The notes beneath the pieces were generated by a model that made no database searches, was not told where the DNA came from, and saw only the letters and a program-made list of their open reading frames with translations. A stretch of 60,609 nucleotides of DNA, the filler included, from Porpidia crustulata (lineage: Eukaryota): assembly GCA_964255105.1 (NCBI GenBank). It is 11 parts of 11 records of this genome, joined end to end, with 100 filler letters (N's around TTAATTAATTAA, not from the genome) between each part and the next. Parts side by side here need not be neighbours in the genome. Positions count along the whole stretch, not along the records: positions 16,579 to 22,001 come from CAXUWE010001817.1; 10 more parts are not named here. One strand, written 5' to 3'. The position numbers were made by a program, and so were the translations under genes. The stretch's first letter is position 1. Each line of letters starts with the position of its first letter. This document shows positions 14,790 through 22,101 of this stretch, one piece after another.

Positions 14790-16578
14790 TGCTTCGTCTG
14801 GAAACTTTGACCTTTTTTCACGCTCAGCATGGCAACGACGAGTACTTAAACGCGCATACGATGCGCTTATGAAATGTGTATTCCAAGTCTTTGGGTTTCG
14901 TTGCTGTACGAGTTGTACCGATAAGCTTTAGGCGACAATTTGAGCGGTAATGGAATAGACATGTAATCTTGGAAGTTACTGGAATAATGACACTACTAAG
15001 GATGGAAACATTATTAAAGAAGGAGATATTTTAACTTGATCTTCTTGAAGGTTGAGATAAAACTAGCTGGCCCGCTTGTAAAGAATGATACTTGGCGAGC
15101 TTCATATTAGAGTGACTTATGAGCATAGATCTCTTGATTGATATTCACGATTGCAGTATGTTACGTCACTATATGGAATGCAATGTTGTTAGATGTGAGA
15201 GCGCCAGCGTCAAGTGGAGTATCAAGTACGCCCAAATGACATGGTAATCTGCTCTCTACCTATTGAAGAAGCCTGTTCACTCGCATTGACGCAGAATCTT
15301 AAGCGGAGTTGGCGACCACAATGAATTTGGTGGCTACGAGAGGTTATTGAGACTTTCTGTGGCATGAATCTGCCAAAGATGTCGGTGTCAAGTTGGTGAC
15401 GCTGGCATAGCCGTACTTTGTAAGAGATGGTGCCAAGTCAATAACAAGACATCCGGAACACTGTTGGTACTGTTGCTAAGATTGACGAATGATACGAGTT
15501 ACGGTGAACACGGCATCCAAATAAATGCACCAGAGTGGTTAAAGGACGCGGCGGCGACGCTACTTGAGACGGTTGCTGTGAGACGGTGGTGACCAAGTGT
15601 TCGATGCGATGACGGTGGGATTTCCGGAGTATGAGAGCTCAGGCAATTCGTGGATAAACATGTCCACTTCCACAAACTGCCTGGCGAGCGCATGGGTTGC
15701 TTTGATTAATTCTGCTTCGAATACAGGTATGCAGGACTTGGAGGGCTGGAAATACATACACATATGTGCCAGCCACGCCAGCCTCTTCAGATGCATCACT
15801 AGCCACACTGAAATAATTGAAATATGGACATGTTGCGATTGGCCACGTTAATGTGCTCGGTCGGTACCTAAGCACCCTAATGCCTGTGTCTCAGCATTCT
15901 CGGTTAGACTGCCATTAGTCTCGATTCATTGGCCCCGCCCGGGAAGACCGAGCATTTATAATTAGCTTTTTACACGAACGGCCGGCGGGTGGCCTGGGAG
16001 GAATAAAAGAGATTGCGGTGTTGTTGTTAATTGCGTATGCCCTCGTTCCGCCGTCTGTCCGGCGTTAATTCCTTCGTCAAGTCGTCGCCAAGTATCTTTC
16101 AACATCAAAGTCACAATGAGACGCACGAGGATGCCCCATTGAGTCGTAAACATCAGCGGGCAAAATCAATCATGGTTGATGAGGTAAAGGCGACATGCAG
16201 ACGACTCGCGGCTCCTAATTACTATTACTTCATTACGAGGCCTGACTCCACATCCCGGTTAACTGATTGCCATAGCAGCCAATCATGACATAGCCGAGCG
16301 AGACATTTACGATTTCTCATTGGACAGATTAGCATCGGCCAGTCGGGCAACGATTGGAAATGGCTTGGCTAGAGAGTACTAATCCTAAATAGTGTCCAAC
16401 CGACAGATGGCAGAAAAGGCAGACTGCAACAAGTCCCTTACTGTTGCATCAAAAAAGTGCATCAACACAGCGATCAACNNNNNNNNNNNNNNNNNNNNNN
16501 NNNNNNNNNNNNNNNNNNNNNNTTAATTAATTAANNNNNNNNNNNNNNNNNNNNNNNNNNNNNNNNNNNNNNNNNNNN

Positions 16579-16940
16579 CTCTAAAGCGGCCCTGCTCCCT
16601 TTCCTGATCGAAAAAGGCAATCCCAAATCCTAAGTTCGGGGTGTATATAATACATATATATATACTCGCTTCCACCCCCCAACGGTCCGCGTTAATCAAA
16701 ATTAGTCAATGTAACCCTAACCCTAGATAGGGCGGACCATTGGGGGGTGGGAGCGAGTATATTACATACACCCCGAACTTAAGATTTACAATTACCATTC
16801 CGGGTTGGGAAAGGGAGCAGAGCTGCTTTAGAGGGAGCACCAGGGGAGCAAAGGGGCGCAGTGAAGGAGCATCGATGGAGCAAGAGAGAGCAAGAGGGAG
16901 CAAGAGGGAGCACATTCAGGCATAGCAGGGGCACAGCAGG
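16579..16940. repeat. Palindromic repeat unit, copy 1: arm A 16579-16690, 41-bp spacer, arm B from 16732 with GAGCA array
   Basis: About 100-110 bp of imperfect inverted repeat (CTCTAAAG...CCCCCCAACGGTCCGC versus GCGGACCATTGGGGGG...CTTTAGAG); GAGCA-like motifs at 10-11 bp spacing, 16835-16912. Confidence 0.85.
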
Positions 16941-17278
16941 TGAGAGCCTGAAATGGCTTCCTCGGTCTCGGTTTGAGTTGCCCTCGTTGCTTTTCTGCTG
17001 CCTACTACTAGACTTCGCCACTTCCCACAGGATCCTTTTAACAGCTGAAGCGATCATCAAACTTCCAGTCTGAAGGGGAATCTTCTACGGTTCTGGTGAC
17101 AAGCTTGCAAGAATTTGCGCATAACACTAAAAAACAATTGGGCTCGATTGTAAAGAAATCATTGAATCTATAAGACTTCCACCTACCTTCGGTCAATTTG
17201 GCATCGCAACGAGTTTCTATCTAATGCAGCCTTTGGTCTTTAAGACATTGATACTTAAGCTCTGAAGACTCGGAGCTC

Positions 17279-20200
17279 ATGGCTCAGAAAGTTATTAGAA
17301 GATCTGATGTATTGACATGTCAATTCCTAAGCAACTATTACAATGGTTGTAAACCTTGACAGAAAATAAAATTCCTTAGCTAACAGTCACAGGCGCCAAC
17401 GCTAGAAATACTCTCGCCCAGAATAGACCAAAATGAACCTGGGGTTGAGCAAGTTTTTCCCGACAACTTCAAAGAAGTCTGAACTGACGTCTGGCTTAGT
17501 ATCATTTTTGTGCATGGACTAAATCCTCTGAGCCATACTGGACATGCTGTGAAAACTTGGACTCATGCGAACGATACTTTCTGGCCAGGCAAGCTTCTCC
17601 CGGAGCATATCCCAACGGCTCGAATAATGCTTTTTGCGTACAATTCGAACGTCGCATGGGATGTTTCAGAGGCCGGCATACGCCAGCATGCAAATGATTT
17701 GCTCGATTTAGTCAACGAGCGGAGACAGGTTCTTATTTCGAATTCTCCTGCACCGCTTCCTTCGTCTAAGTTTGACCAGGAAGTCCCATGTATTCGGCCT
17801 ATCATCTTCATTTGTCATAGCCTAGGAGGCTTGGTAGTGAAACAGGTATGCAATGGGTCCTCAGCCTCAGCTTCCTATCGCCCTATACTAAAGGTCACTT
17901 CTAAGGCTCTATTGACAGCACACCTCAATCGCCGATTTGAATCCATACGGCGGATTACCTACGGAATTGTATTCTTTGCGACTCCTCATAGAGGCGGAAA
18001 TGGAGCAACAATTGGCCAAGTTGCTGCTAATGTGGCACGAATTGTTACTGGTAGTGACCGTAACGACCTGGTTAAATCTCTCCAAAAGAACTCCCCATTC
18101 TTGGCTCATCTTACTGCGGATTTCAAGCATATTTCCGATGACTACAGCTATCTTAGTATTGTTGAGAGTAGAGGGATATTCAGGGCTCCCTTCCGAACGG
18201 TTAGTGGCCATTTTTCCATTCCCAGATACTGCTGAACCATCTCAAGGTAGTTGTAGACAGAAACTCTGCTGAGCTAGGACTTCCTGGACATCGAGAACAC
18301 GTCATAGAACTGGACTTCGACCATCGCCAAATCTGCAGGCTCACGAATGATGCCGTTTTCCAACGAATCCTGCGCCACATAAAGTGGCTTGTTGACTCAG
18401 CTACAAGGGCGGCCAGGGATAATCAATCAGATAATCAATCGCAGATCTACCAACAGGAGCCATCGACACACAGTGCTGAGATATCTGTGGCTTCGTCTTC
18501 TCCTCTTTTGTCGACTGTTGACTGCATTGAATCAGTCACGAATGTTGGATTTGAGGCTCTCATGAAGCAATTGACGCAATGGCTTTCTGATGACTCTCCA
18601 TTCTTGGTCCTACATGGAGTTCATGGCTCTGGGTTAGTTCAAAATAGCTAAGCTTATCCAGATGCTAAAATGAAGACAGGAAAACGTCCGTAGCGTCCGA
18701 GTTTGCGTGGAAGCAGCGAAATTCCTTTTCCATTTTCTGGTTTGCGGCCGAAAATTTGCATACCTTACAAATTTGGTACTACAGAGCTTCATTCTGTGTC
18801 GACCCTGGTAGATTCAGTGAACATACGAGAGACCACTTTGGTTTTGTGACACAATGGCTACTTAATCCTGGGAACGGCAGATGGATCTTGATATTCGATA
18901 ACGCGAATCCGGAGCTGAACTTCGGAGAAATTTTGCCTAAAACCGTTCCATGGGGCAAAATACTGATCACAAGCCGCACAGGAAACGTGACAATGGGTAC
19001 AAGACAACCAAGTGAACACCTAGTCTCGGTTTCGATGCCACCGCTTTCGGCTGATGAAGCCCTTGCATTGTTCACACTACGATGTGCAAACTCAGAGATA
19101 GCGCAAGCACAAAGATCGGAAGTCTCTAGGCAGACTTCTCTCTTACGTTACAGTCCATTCTCTATTTTACTGGCAAGTGCATATTTCCAGACGTTCCGGG
19201 ACGTCACGGCAATTCAATCTACCGATCATGACACTCCAGATAACAATGACAATCTCGTGTCGCTGATATCATTTCTGATTGAAGAAGCTGGCATGAATCG
19301 TCGCCTGTTCTTAATATTTCTCTTCTTGCTCGGTGGAGGCACTACCCCGTTAGAGGTTGTCAATCTGTGCCAAAGGCTTCTAAAACCGCGTCGTGACCTT
19401 CAAAGAGGAATCGAATTCCTAAGTATCAGCAACACGGGACCGACGATCAATCATTGGACGTCTCTTGGACTTTTACAGCGCCAAAACAGTCCTCTTGGGA
19501 CAGTCCTCATTTTCCCGTCCTCTGCCGCGATGGCTATGGAACAAGAAATTTTGAAGGATCCTGAGCAGACTATGCACATTCTGGAGCTTAGTTTGCGCCT
19601 CTTAGCTTTGGGAAAGGATGAAATCCGCTCTCTGTCTCCAATCAACATTGTCAGATACGTGGAAAAGACCATCAGCAGCCTCCGCAACCTCTGTGCAGTA
19701 GCTAGAGACATATCATTACCTTTACCCAGGGACTCCATGAGTCATCTGCAGGTTTCTTCCTTCTACTATCTTGACAAAACAATATTGGAGGGCCGCTTAT
19801 TGTTCAAAAAAATGTTTTGGCGGCAGTGGCTTTCTTCGTTCAATTATCCATCTCCAGCTTATTTGACAAATGACAACGAATTTACAACTGGCCCTCCCAT
19901 CCTGCGATGGCCCACTTGGCTTGAAACTCTGCTTCAAAAAAGTGATCTCAAAAGCATTGACTTTAGAAATGTCGTTCACGATGAAATCGTTGCAAAATTG
20001 CGGGACGAGCTAGAGCGTGCGACTTGGCTCTGTGGAATCGGAAATGCTTGGTTCGGAGTGCGTGCGCATGTGTTTGATTTTGCGCGTCATAATTTCCACG
20101 TGGATTTCTCCGAGGGCCAGAAAGCGAGCTTTCTCAACTTCATCGATAAGGGAGGAAAAGAAGGTGTTCAGACCAAACTCGTATCCGTCACCCGGAGTCA

Positions 20201-20897
20201 AGATTTTCGGGAAGAAGTCGAGGGCAAAATCAGCTCTGGCGCTGTAGAGGAAATCGCGCAGGTGATTTGTGCCATCTCACACCCTCATATGCCATTTCTA
20301 TCGAAGGAGGTCATCCAAAAAGCTGTATCTGAGGCTCTCGGAGACATCATGCATGAAACCTTCTACGAAGCCGGTAGCGTCTTCACGTCGACTCTTCTAC
20401 CGATACAAGGTTTGATTAAAAACATTATCGAAGGTCTGTTAGAGATCCCATCCGACGGAGAAAGCGCTCAAAATCTCGTCTCATTTGGCGTATCCGAGGT
20501 AGGTGGGCAACACCTGCAGGAGCGTTGCCTCGCACTAGCAGAAGGGTTCTGCGAGTATCTTTATGCGGCAAAGATGTGGATCGCGGCAAAAGTCTGTCTC
20601 CACCTTGCGTATGCGGCCGCGGATGAGAATAAGCCGACGAGAGAAGTCGACTGGGACTGGATCTGCGCGATCATCGAAATCGCCCGCGAAGGCGTCTGTC
20701 CGGTAGAAAGGATCCCAGGTCGCAAGGCAGAAGTTGCGGGACGGAGAATGCTACATTGGTTAGAGGAGGCTCACCGATGTAGGAATGCATGGGGTGCACG
20801 GCCAGATGTACCGGCATATGAATTTCGAAATCAGGCTTTGTGGGAAGAAACGCGTATTCTCATGGGTGCCGAAAATTATTCCTGGATATTGTCATAG
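17279..20897 (+). CDS. NLR-like protein: SesB/DUF676-type alpha/beta hydrolase + NB-ARC-type P-loop NTPase + uncharacterised C-terminal region
   Basis: DIIFVHGLNP, CHSLGG, ATPHRG and DHRQIC hydrolase motifs; Walker A HGVHGSG|KT split by an intron near 18633-18679; WILIFDNA Walker B; GKILITSR. Start codon and exon 1 are tentative. Confidence 0.82.
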
Positions 20898-21229
20898 CGA
20901 GCCCAGAAACTATCTCTCGACCACAATAGTAAACGAAAGTGAGGGAAGCCGCTTTGAGAAGGGTCTTTGGCTGTCAAGAGGGGAAATTCAGCTCCCTGCT
21001 ATAGTACAAAGCTAATATGCTAGGAGACCTTGGGAGAATCAAGGGGCAGGGAGATCTTACGCCCCGAGGGTTTTTCCCGTACTCGTTTAAGAGTAGCCCT
21101 ACTTCCGTGTAAACAAGAGGATGATAAGATATCCTAGGTAGTAGGAAAAGCAACGAAGGTTTACTGAAGCCGAGACGGAAGAAAGCTATTTTGGGTTTTT
21201 ATCTACTGCGCCCCTATACCACCCTATAT

Positions 21230-21605
21230 ATAGTCCTCTCTCTCGCTCGCTCATATTCCCGCACTGCTCTCTCGCTGCTCTTTACTCTCTTGTCGCTCCT
21301 TTGTTGCTCCTTTTAAAGTGGCTCTGCTCCTGTTTTCCCGCCCCGGAACGGTAAATATCAAGTCCTAAGTTCTGGGGTATACATTATATATACTCGAAGC
21401 TAGAGATTAAAGATTGCCGTTTCTGTTCGAAAAAAGGGAGCAGGCCGATTTAGAAGGATCATAATAGAGGGAGCAAAAACCGTAGCGAAGGGGCATCGAG
21501 GGGAGCATTAAAGAAGCATAAGGGAGCACTAGCGGAGCACAAGGGAGCACAGAAGAGCAGGAGGGGGTGAGCAAAAGCACTAAACGGGCCCTAGCGCGGG
21601 AGCAA
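21230..21605. repeat. Palindromic repeat unit, copy 2, inverted relative to copy 1: arm C ~21230-21396, arm D 21405-~21605
   Basis: The reverse complement of arm C matches arm B (CGAGTATA...CCCC.GAACTTA.GA.T...TACC.TTCCGGG...GGAGCAGAGC..CTTTA); arm D matches the reverse complement of arm A; TGCTC/GAGCA arrays lie on the outer sides. Confidence 0.8.
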
Positions 21606-21658
21606 TGTGGCGGTACTGTTTGTTTGAAATTCGAGAATAGTATATATATAAACATGTA

Positions 21659-22001
21659 ACGTAATCCGACACTAAACGCACGCCGACACTAAACGCACAC
21701 CCCACCAAAATCCAACCATTATGTTCAAATCGCTCCAAAATGGTCAACGAAGAAGCTATAGAGCAAGCAATTAATGATTTAAGATCACAGGAACTTCCTA
21801 ATTTCACTGCTGCTTCTGAAAAGTATAATGTTCATCGTACAACTCTTACACGTCGCTTCAAAAGCGAAGCTCTCTCCTACACCGAAGCTCGATCTAGGAG
21901 CCACAAACTACTCACCAACGCTGAAGAATCAGTCTTGCTTGAGTATATTTAAAAGCTTTCAGACCAGGGACTGCATCCAACGCCTAAAATACTGAAGAAC
22001 C
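21659..22001 (+). mobile_element. Pogo/Fot1 (Tc1/mariner superfamily) DNA transposon, 5' end, disrupted transposase, cut by gap
   Basis: TA at 21657-21658, then a TIR starting ACGTAATC with duplicated CCGACACTAAACGCAC; ORF from 21740 encodes HTH_psq/CENP-B-like motifs (AASEKYNVHRTTLTRR, LLTNAEESVLLEYI*KLSDQGLHPTP) with an internal TAA at 21950-21952. Confidence 0.88.
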
Positions 22002-22101
22002 NNNNNNNNNNNNNNNNNNNNNNNNNNNNNNNNNNNNNNNNNNNNTTAATTAATTAANNNNNNNNNNNNNNNNNNNNNNNNNNNNNNNNNNNNNNNNNNN
22101 N

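Follow-up and report, generated by a model that had tools for sequence, protein, structure and literature searches.

The DNA analysed here (the window, 60,609 nt) comes from the genome assembly of Porpidia crustulata (GCA_964255105.1) and joins 11 contigs of 5407-5427 nt into 60.6 kb, with 10 linkers (N run/TTAATTAATTAA/N run) separating them. The locus under study is the 5.4-kb contig at 16579-22001 (CAXUWE010001817.1), which carries a single NOD-like receptor (NLR)-like gene between two imperfect palindromes, unit 1 on its left and unit 2 on its right. An earlier sequence-only reading had proposed that the palindromes might delimit a mobilised immune cassette. We describe the transposon family to which all four palindrome arms belong, and argue that the palindromes are likely to be independent insertions of that family, piled up in two TA runs that flank an ordinary host gene.

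Unit 1 consists of arm A, directed leftward, and arm B, directed towards the gene, while unit 2 consists of arm C, directed back towards the gene, and arm D, directed away from it. A repeat search recovers the outer arms of unit 1 (16579-16652 and 16760-16833, 74 nt, 80% complementary), an inner pair (16660-16690 and 16732-16762, 31 nt, 94%, spacing 41 nt) and an inverted match between the units (16814-16849 and 21295-21330, 81%). By blastn the two units are 71.6% identical over 162 nt in inverted orientation, and neither has a copy in the other 10 contigs of the window. MAFFT alignment with reverse complements (rc) gives 182/293 identities for B and rc(C), 58/73 for B and rc(A), 59/86 for rc(C) and rc(A), 45/71 for D and rc(A), and 159/303 for B and D. 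The homology of the four arms is far beyond chance, and each is matched by a profile of the 5' end (head) of the repeat family described below (Table 1). Repeat search, blastn, MAFFT and head profile thus bear out the layout first reported, of two units with homologous arms, mutually inverted around one gene.

Each of the four arms is a copy from a single abundant family of non-autonomous transposons, and the earlier suggestion that they are transposon ends holds, with all four matching the head profile and D matching a tail profile as well. Identity to the family consensus is 79/85 for A (93%), 83/103 for B (81%), 68/85 for C (80%) and 76/92 for D, while B and C are 62% identical to each other. 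Arm A is truncated by the contig start, leaving ~85 nt visible. Arm B continues into an inner segment (profile E=1.7e-43) and is 77-81% identical over ~310 nt to copies in the public metagenome loci L076, L055, L056 and L030; arm C, which aligns with B, has the same inner segment (profile E=1.2e-7). Arm D is a complete short copy of 249 nt from head to tail (tail profile at 21540-21647, E=4.3e-16), so that unit 2, first thought to end at 21605, extends to 21640-21650. A and D are parts of different elements from B and C, as the sequence-only reading had also supposed.

Table 1. Features of the contig at 16579-22001, its left-hand linker, and the HET unit found in public metagenome loci (L numbers); positions without an L number are window positions, and E values are for the head profile.
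Feature	Position	Strand	Remarks
Arm A (head; body off contig, leftward)	16579-16662	-	GGGGTG core of the terminal inverted repeat 16639-16644, then TA run; E=1.2e-25
MITE-2 (nested, unrelated 97-nt palindromic element)	16663-16759	.	~28-31-nt inverted ends, TA on both sides
Arm B (head)	16760-17080	+	TA run, CACCCC core 16769-16774, GGGAGCA repeats to ~16925, inner segment 16926-17074; E=1.1e-26
NLR-like gene	17433-20897	+	DUF676/sesB-like lipase domain, NB-ARC-like NTPase, ~650-aa C-terminal region
Arm C (head, inverted)	21130-21393	-	Inner segment 21134-21215, TGCTCC repeats, GGGGTA core 21374-21379, TA run common to D; E=4.1e-14
Arm D (complete short copy, ~250 nt)	21380-21650	+	Head ~21391, tail end 21640, TA run to 21650; E=1.8e-10
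pogo/Fot1-type transposon (5' end, cut by contig end)	21651-22001	+	Starts at TA run after D; ATG 21740
HET unit	L006 3804-7034; L070 6984-10225		Two unrelated flanking contexts
Linker	16479-16578	.	Artificial contig boundary, not biology

To sample the family, public metagenome contigs were scanned with a 17-nt motif from the arm tip, giving at least 122 stretches (80 with 7-kb flanks), among which a few are chance matches (e.g. L017, L046, L068) and the rest represent one repeat. A profile search with nhmmer finds 180 heads in these loci, of which 129 are unique after merging copies at least 90% identical over their flanks. In motif-aligned copies the head comprises a TA run (~17 nt, usually ending TTATATA), a CACCCCGAACTTAGG core, a conserved stretch of ~60 nt and an array of subterminal GGGAGCA repeats spaced 11-12 nt apart, which are putative transposase-binding sites. 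Upstream of the TA run most pairs of copies are unrelated, similarity ending 10-30 nt before the core, inside the TA run.

In front of ~15 copies stands a further conserved piece, the tail, which ends in the reverse-complemented core followed by a TA run. Aligned to the reverse-complemented tail consensus, the head consensus scores 36, whereas 500 shuffles average 14 and never exceed 30; the part common to both is an inverted core of ~15 nt plus the TA run, which constitutes a terminal inverted repeat (TIR). Besides D, the loci contain at least 13 distinct copies that are complete from head to tail and measure 177-316 nt; such copies fall within the ~800 nt usual for MITEs and consist of repeats only, with no coding capacity. 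Because it combines a TIR with such short complete copies, the family is a non-autonomous DNA transposon resembling a miniature inverted-repeat transposable element (MITE), and it shows several of the features by which MITEs are recognised, being short, non-coding, bounded by TIRs and dispersed in many copies with unrelated flanks.

Complete copies are accompanied by a solo-type head arm of 320-400 nt that includes the conserved inner segment (56/129 heads, among them B and C); a reading of B and C as a rare inner-segment subtype was dropped on this count. For 28 of the 54 heads having at least 6.9 kb of inward sequence, there is neither a tail nor a convergent head. Beyond the inner segment copies diverge at differing points, as if derived from a longer master, which was not found in the loci. 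Extension of the arms as a route to a master or autonomous element leads in one case into a multi-copy region of ~2.2 kb, which by eye is not a transposase. This region occurs in L071 (7531-9705, beginning ~530 nt inside the head arm), L003 (6594-8790), L065 (10870-13066) and L031 (9922-10694), with copies 73-90% identical and broken open reading frames (ORFs) that look kinase- or phosphotransferase-like by eye.

Three further interpretations of the repeat were discarded. The tail motif of the D type was considered as the usual 3' end, and lies within 800 nt of only 2/110 heads. Same-orientation pairs 3-6 kb apart prompted readings as a long terminal repeat (LTR) retrotransposon, a Helitron or a short interspersed nuclear element (SINE), which were rejected because the tail ends in the inverted core. 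The arm as a mobile promoter was likewise rejected, as the first inward ORF of at least 200 aa runs away from the head in 22 cases and towards it in 20 (p=0.88), leaving no upstream or orientation bias of the family towards genes. Outward of the heads, the first ORF runs away in 22 cases and towards in 39 (p=0.04, marginal).

Logan contigs of four runs were aligned to the locus. The contig from the source run (record 10) corresponds to 16653-21683 with 0 differences and thereby links arm B through the gene to arms C and D, and run X4 (labelled rock metagenome) provides a 4951-nt contig ~94% identical to the locus. In run X20, a relative, no contig of 80% likeness or more spans the gene body, a gap in coverage to which no weight is given. 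In the contigs of the four runs, copies of arm A match as far as 16660-16664 and then continue into unlike sequence, while further contigs first match arm B at 16759-16767. Since some contigs leave A and others enter B at these points, the centre of the palindrome is the true end of two separate copies.

The space between these ends is occupied by MITE-2, an unrelated palindromic element. The 31-nt inner arms and the 41 bp between them, which had been taken as part of unit 1 itself, belong to this separate nested element, the 41 bp being its loop, with two telomere-like CCCTAA units (16712-16726). The ends of MITE-2 are unlike those of the main family (score 12, below the mean of 14 for shuffled sequence). 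Copies are present in the source run, where record 11 matches 16673-16759 and loose ends fall at 16663/16673 and 16725/16759, and none is found in the at least 122 metagenome loci. With MITE-2 removed, the gap between A and B is a TA run of ~28 nt.

Head-to-head meetings recur in the family. In the metagenome loci 30 of the 129 unique heads form head-to-head pairs 14-126 nt apart; when tails are counted as well, 18 junctions are tail|head and 3 are tail|tail, and 81 heads and 10 tails stand free. In total ~72/163 ends (~44%) abut another family end across a TA run, whereas at ~one head per 7 kb sampled, ~1% would be expected by chance to be adjacent (within 130 nt and suitably oriented). End-to-end abutment is thus a family-wide habit. 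In the window, moreover, three unrelated TA-flanked elements (the family, MITE-2 and the pogo/Fot1-type transposon) occupy the two TA runs.

Because abutment is general in the family, independent insertion in TA-run hotspots is the best reading of the locus, and we consider it likely; among the models that the sequence-only reading had listed, this is the one now favoured. The family would insert into, or carry, TA runs, and the TA-rich end of each resident copy would offer a fresh target, at which later family copies, the 97-nt MITE and the pogo/Fot1-type transposon would land end to end. A and B would have met head to head before the 97-nt MITE split them, and C and D would likewise have met head to head, producing the second imperfect palindrome and the mirrored arrangement. 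The family membership of the arms, their termini, the abundance of the family and its abutting habit are observed; what we infer is that TA-run targeting caused the pile-ups, in what order the insertions came, and that the mechanism is Tc1/mariner-like.

A foldback or recombination-site explanation would take each whole palindrome as one element or site, the pair delimiting a cassette that moves or inverts by recombination. Tandem subrepeats do occur in the arms, which pair as long, imperfect inverted repeats, and head-to-head pairs recur at ~15 junctions. Nevertheless, 81 of the 129 heads are free, with unique flanks from the TA run onward, so the palindrome centre is the end of an element, not its middle; D ends in a true tail bearing the inverted core; junctions of the tail|head and tail|tail kinds exist too; and the contig carries no recombinase. 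The earlier proposal that the palindromes serve as recombination sites likewise finds no support in the other copies of each arm, which stop at the position of the palindrome centre and pass into unrelated flanks, and we regard this explanation as highly unlikely.

Mis-joins at the contig ends of a fragmented short-read assembly could also produce palindromes. Arm A does lie at the contig start, the source Logan contig begins only at 16653, and the right end of the contig falls in a repeat that assemblers collapse. Against this, the arms are imperfect (80% and less), unlike the product of an artefact; the independent assembly of the source run (record 10) covers unit 2, arm B and the nested element with 0 differences; and the head-to-head layout recurs in many unrelated public contigs. 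An assembly origin is barely credible.

The units enclose one gene, as first reported. Removal of four GT-AG introns (~17453-17499, uncertain; 17846-17905; 18200-18246; 18633-18679) leaves a model open for ~1086 aa, which contains the motif GHSLGG, a Walker A motif (GSGKT) and a Walker B motif (ILIFDNAN), the Walker motifs becoming readable on removal of the intron. Where the gene starts is uncertain, because an in-frame TGA at 17480, just 5' of the conserved lipase core, means that an open start after the ATG at 17433 needs a short, weak intron (GTTTTT...TAG, 17453-17499). The lipase domain is related to 203 longer proteins at E<=0.001 (best 1e-57, fungal DUF676/"LipA and NB-ARC" proteins), many of which combine DUF676 with NB-ARC or NACHT and with TPR or ankyrin repeats; the closest matches are from lichen-forming and other Pezizomycotina. 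Together with the X4 contig they point to an ascomycete as the source, probably one living with lichens or on rock. The Pfam DUF676 match itself is weak (E=0.014, under the cut-off).

A Pfam scan of the gene makes no NB-ARC call and returns weak matches only. By hhalign, the NTPase part of 15 homologues aligns to residues 349-496 of the relative P0052 with 86.6% probability (E=4.5e-6); these residues follow the DUF676 domain, and NB-ARC is in the precomputed Pfam list of P0052. The C-terminal ~650 aa (18680-20897) are shared with 17 homologues and conserved down to 40% identity. No Pfam domain is found in this region in the 17 homologues, nor any TPR, ankyrin or WD40 repeat family of Pfam, and a profile of the C-terminal family finds nothing below E=0.77 among PDB sequences. 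The region appears, from these comparisons, to be an undescribed module that replaces the usual TPR, ankyrin or WD40 repeats, and "hydrolase/NB-ARC NLR-like gene" is a fair label for the predicted product, which lacks the usual repeat domain.

On either side of this gene, 4608 nt separate head B (plus) from head C (minus); the two are inverted and of the same end type. A composite or Pack-type explanation, also among the models first listed, would make these two inverted heads with their intact TIR cores the ends, now or once, of a 4.6-kb transposon carrying the NLR, with A and D as neighbours inserted at its flanking TA runs. At this locus, we consider it unlikely. The gene is covered by just one source contig (record 10), and the interior from B to C has no copy in the at least 122 loci. 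Both ends are heads, whereas complete copies have a head and a tail, and each is only ~80% identical to the consensus and, as noted, less so to the other. The X4 contig matches 16892-20982 with 235 differences and 21061-21284 with 38, and this ~94% relative therefore keeps the inner parts of B and C; the comparison points to B and C as old insertions inherited with the locus, and any mobilisation would have to be ancient. The sequence-only reading had named two outcomes that would count against a cassette, an abundant repeat placed at random without bracketing genes in pairs, and a relative with the NLR at the same place but without the repeat; the repeat is indeed abundant, but the relative keeps it beside the NLR.

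No sign of movement of the B to C interval came to light, neither a further copy nor an empty site, and its ends abut other copies, where a target duplication would be unreadable. Bracketing alone means little, since head-to-tail intervals elsewhere also hold resident housekeeping genes (an asparaginase, a HIT protein and a class II tRNA synthetase in L070 645-6983). The NLR-like gene is not demonstrably carried by anything, and the evidence points against its mobilisation.

Elsewhere in the family, some observations favour cargo. A unit of 3242 nt, running from head to tail and containing a HET-domain gene (PF06985, 5.5e-30), is 99.4% identical between L006/L062 and L070/L071, and the match ends exactly at head and tail. 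Nothing else is alike in the 3.8-7 kb on either side. In L070 the unit lies between the tail and the head of other copies, and in L006 between unique sequences; its ORF is whole in L070 (560 aa) and split in L006 (275 + 284 aa). Because the left neighbour in L070 has housekeeping genes that are absent from the L006 flank, this looks like a real second location, the L070 context being one metagenome contig. Other genes are enclosed in comparable ways: in L058 a HET gene lies between convergent heads, the same layout as in the window, and in L002 a head and a tail, 6.2 kb apart, enclose a NACHT-ankyrin gene. All of these speak for the Pack-type explanation in general. Against them, the HET unit is the one cargo unit seen in two contexts across all locus pairs, with one of these contexts resting on a single contig; all-against-all locus searches, at 85% identity or above and also with plain blastn, return no other.

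From the loci, 151 representative ORFs of at least 250 aa were defined and 139 were scanned, plus eight shorter ORFs; of the 12 left out, 10 come from L046 and L068, both chance loci, and two nearly duplicate scanned ORFs. Among the scanned ORFs are six HET genes, and six further ORFs that make up five NLR-type genes (two NACHT-ankyrin, one SesA-NB-ARC-TPR, one NB-ARC-TPR and one with NPHP3_N alone). HET and NLR ORFs lie nearer to family ends than the others (medians of 825 and 2305 nt for 12 and 129 ORFs; one-sided Mann-Whitney p=0.019), a comparison made within loci picked for holding the repeat, with no genome-wide baseline. Other ORFs near copies encode DUF3723 (L039 8567-9694, 4.4e-81), a Schlafen group-3-like helicase (L041 9315-11201, 1.3e-64) and a patatin-like protein (L063 726-2135). 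Genes of these three kinds are often found in accessory or mobile regions of fungal genomes.

Several of these observations, with others, weigh against reading the palindromes simply as passive, independent insertions. No target-site duplication or empty site of the family is readable, both ends lying in TA runs of variable length that mask any TA duplication, and targeting of TA runs accordingly stays an inference. The ~1.3 Mb around the copies yield no transposase among the 139 scanned ORFs and no autonomous partner with the same ends; the sole trace is a DDE_3 fragment (L032 4859-5224). The one-ended solo arm is the commonest form, which is odd for a cut-and-paste MITE. The junction of arm A is known from the window's own assembly alone, given the start of the source Logan contig. 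Convergent head pairs around genes recur, as in L058, where the heads are 5288 nt apart, and in view of the proximity of HET and NLR ORFs and of the HET unit in two contexts, the bracketing of genes may not always be passive. On this last point we see it as possible, if rather unlikely, that the family includes Pack-type derivatives, bounded by head and tail or by two heads, which move whole HET or NLR genes between TA runs; the NLR of the window would then be an old, immobile example.

Presence/absence indels between orthologous locus pairs (18 rows, 4 distinct, of 147, 474, 580 and 634 nt) include none with family ends. They lie at L041 8335-8483 (147), L032 9310-9785 (474), L028 486-1067 (580) and L023 8590-9225 (634), in loci otherwise 93-99% identical, and may be other small mobile elements.

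To the right of D, the ORF at the contig end probably encodes the start of a transposase of pogo/Fot1 type, to judge by its relatives. The contig holds just its first 70 aa, with a weak HTH_psq match (E=0.06); 248 relatives are found at E<=0.001 in a HMMER search, whereas a word-index protein search matched none. Among eight longer relatives scanned, P0248 has DDE_1 (2.1e-23) and P0204 and P0147 have HTH_Tnp_Tc5, and the assignment follows from the presence of one or other of these domains in proteins with the same N-terminus. The copy in the window is probably dead, because its ORF has an in-frame TAA at 21950-21952. In the Logan contigs this element has a word depth of 228.8, against 12.3 in the adjoining sequence (~19x), as expected of a collapsed repeat, the depth not being a copy number. 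Its end is unlike the ends of the MITE-like family (scores 14 and 16), so this element is not the autonomous partner of the MITE.

The remaining contigs of the window hold ordinary fungal genes (Fungal_trans, SRP68, PPR, an ISWI-type SNF2/HAND/SLIDE protein and ABC1). The contigs are length-sorted. Features seeming to span a linker (e.g. those at 16479-16578 and 22002-22101) are artefacts, as are "repeats" composed of the linkers themselves.

For the locus itself the result is deflationary, as an apparent mobilised immune cassette becomes a set of ordinary, stacked small-transposon insertions at TA-run hotspots. The head and tail profiles can be used in annotating genomes of rock- and lichen-associated ascomycetes, and they explain breaks in short-read contigs. 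Stacking end to end can build long palindromes beside genes, which may matter for local instability. The HET unit and the proximity of HET and NLR genes to family ends bear on turnover of the fungal NLR and HET repertoire, a role that the Podospora literature, in its accessible text, raised only as a possibility (PMC13449251). If the Pack-type reading were true, a small cut-and-paste element, and not a giant Starship, would help to shuffle fungal genes for non-self recognition.

Among known systems, the family can first be compared with Stowaway-like and Tc1/mariner MITEs, which target TA, have short TIRs, measure a few hundred nucleotides and occur nested or adjacent. The family resembles them in its TA-rich sites, short TIRs, size and nested or adjacent insertions, a likeness to the superfamily by form only; it differs in that a TA duplication is unreadable within its TA runs, and the one Tc1/pogo-type transposase present on the contig has ends unrelated to its own. 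Gene fragments are the usual cargo of Pack-MULEs. The family shares with Pack-type elements a head and a tail that enclose 0.4-6 kb of unrelated host sequence, and the HET unit in two contexts; unlike Pack-MULEs it has whole genes between its ends, and the B to C interval of the window has two heads, a single copy and no readable duplication. Long, imperfect inverted repeats of short tandem subrepeats characterise the foldback (FB) elements of Drosophila, pairs of which can bracket and move genes. The arms described here are built alike from tandem subrepeats, whereas the centre of their palindrome joins the genuine ends of two copies.

Mimps (miniature impala elements) derive from impala. Like the family, they are short, non-autonomous, multi-copy inverted-repeat elements of a filamentous ascomycete (Fusarium oxysporum) that lie beside a fast-evolving class of genes. 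They differ in terminal sequence, and the family has long GGGAGCA arrays, pile-ups at TA runs and many one-ended arms; for the family, no autonomous partner was found in the loci scanned. As MITEs near F. oxysporum effector genes, mimps are the closest named analogue, according to the accessible text of the reports (PMC3599309, PMC5579170).

In the lichen-forming Umbilicaria pustulata, four MITE families with 130 copies were counted and, in the accessible part of the report, left undescribed (PMC8773270). Literature on lichen MITEs consists of general transposable element (TE) surveys, in which a description of the present family was not found, TE libraries and supplements lying outside the search; a search for "Pack-MITE" with "fungal" returned only a grapevine paper. 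We regard the MITE-like family as previously unnamed, new but conventional in kind. The nearest parallel for its setting is Podospora anserina, where TEs make up 23.4% of the 2-kb flanks of NLRs with high internal conservation, compared with 2.4% for random genes, and where the authors raise duplication of NLRs via flanking TEs or their direct mobilisation (PMC13449251, accessible text). The approach there is statistical and takes in TEs of every class without, as far as the accessible text goes, naming a specific small element, whereas the Porpidia locus pairs one defined MITE-like family with an NLR-like gene that lacks a repeat domain.

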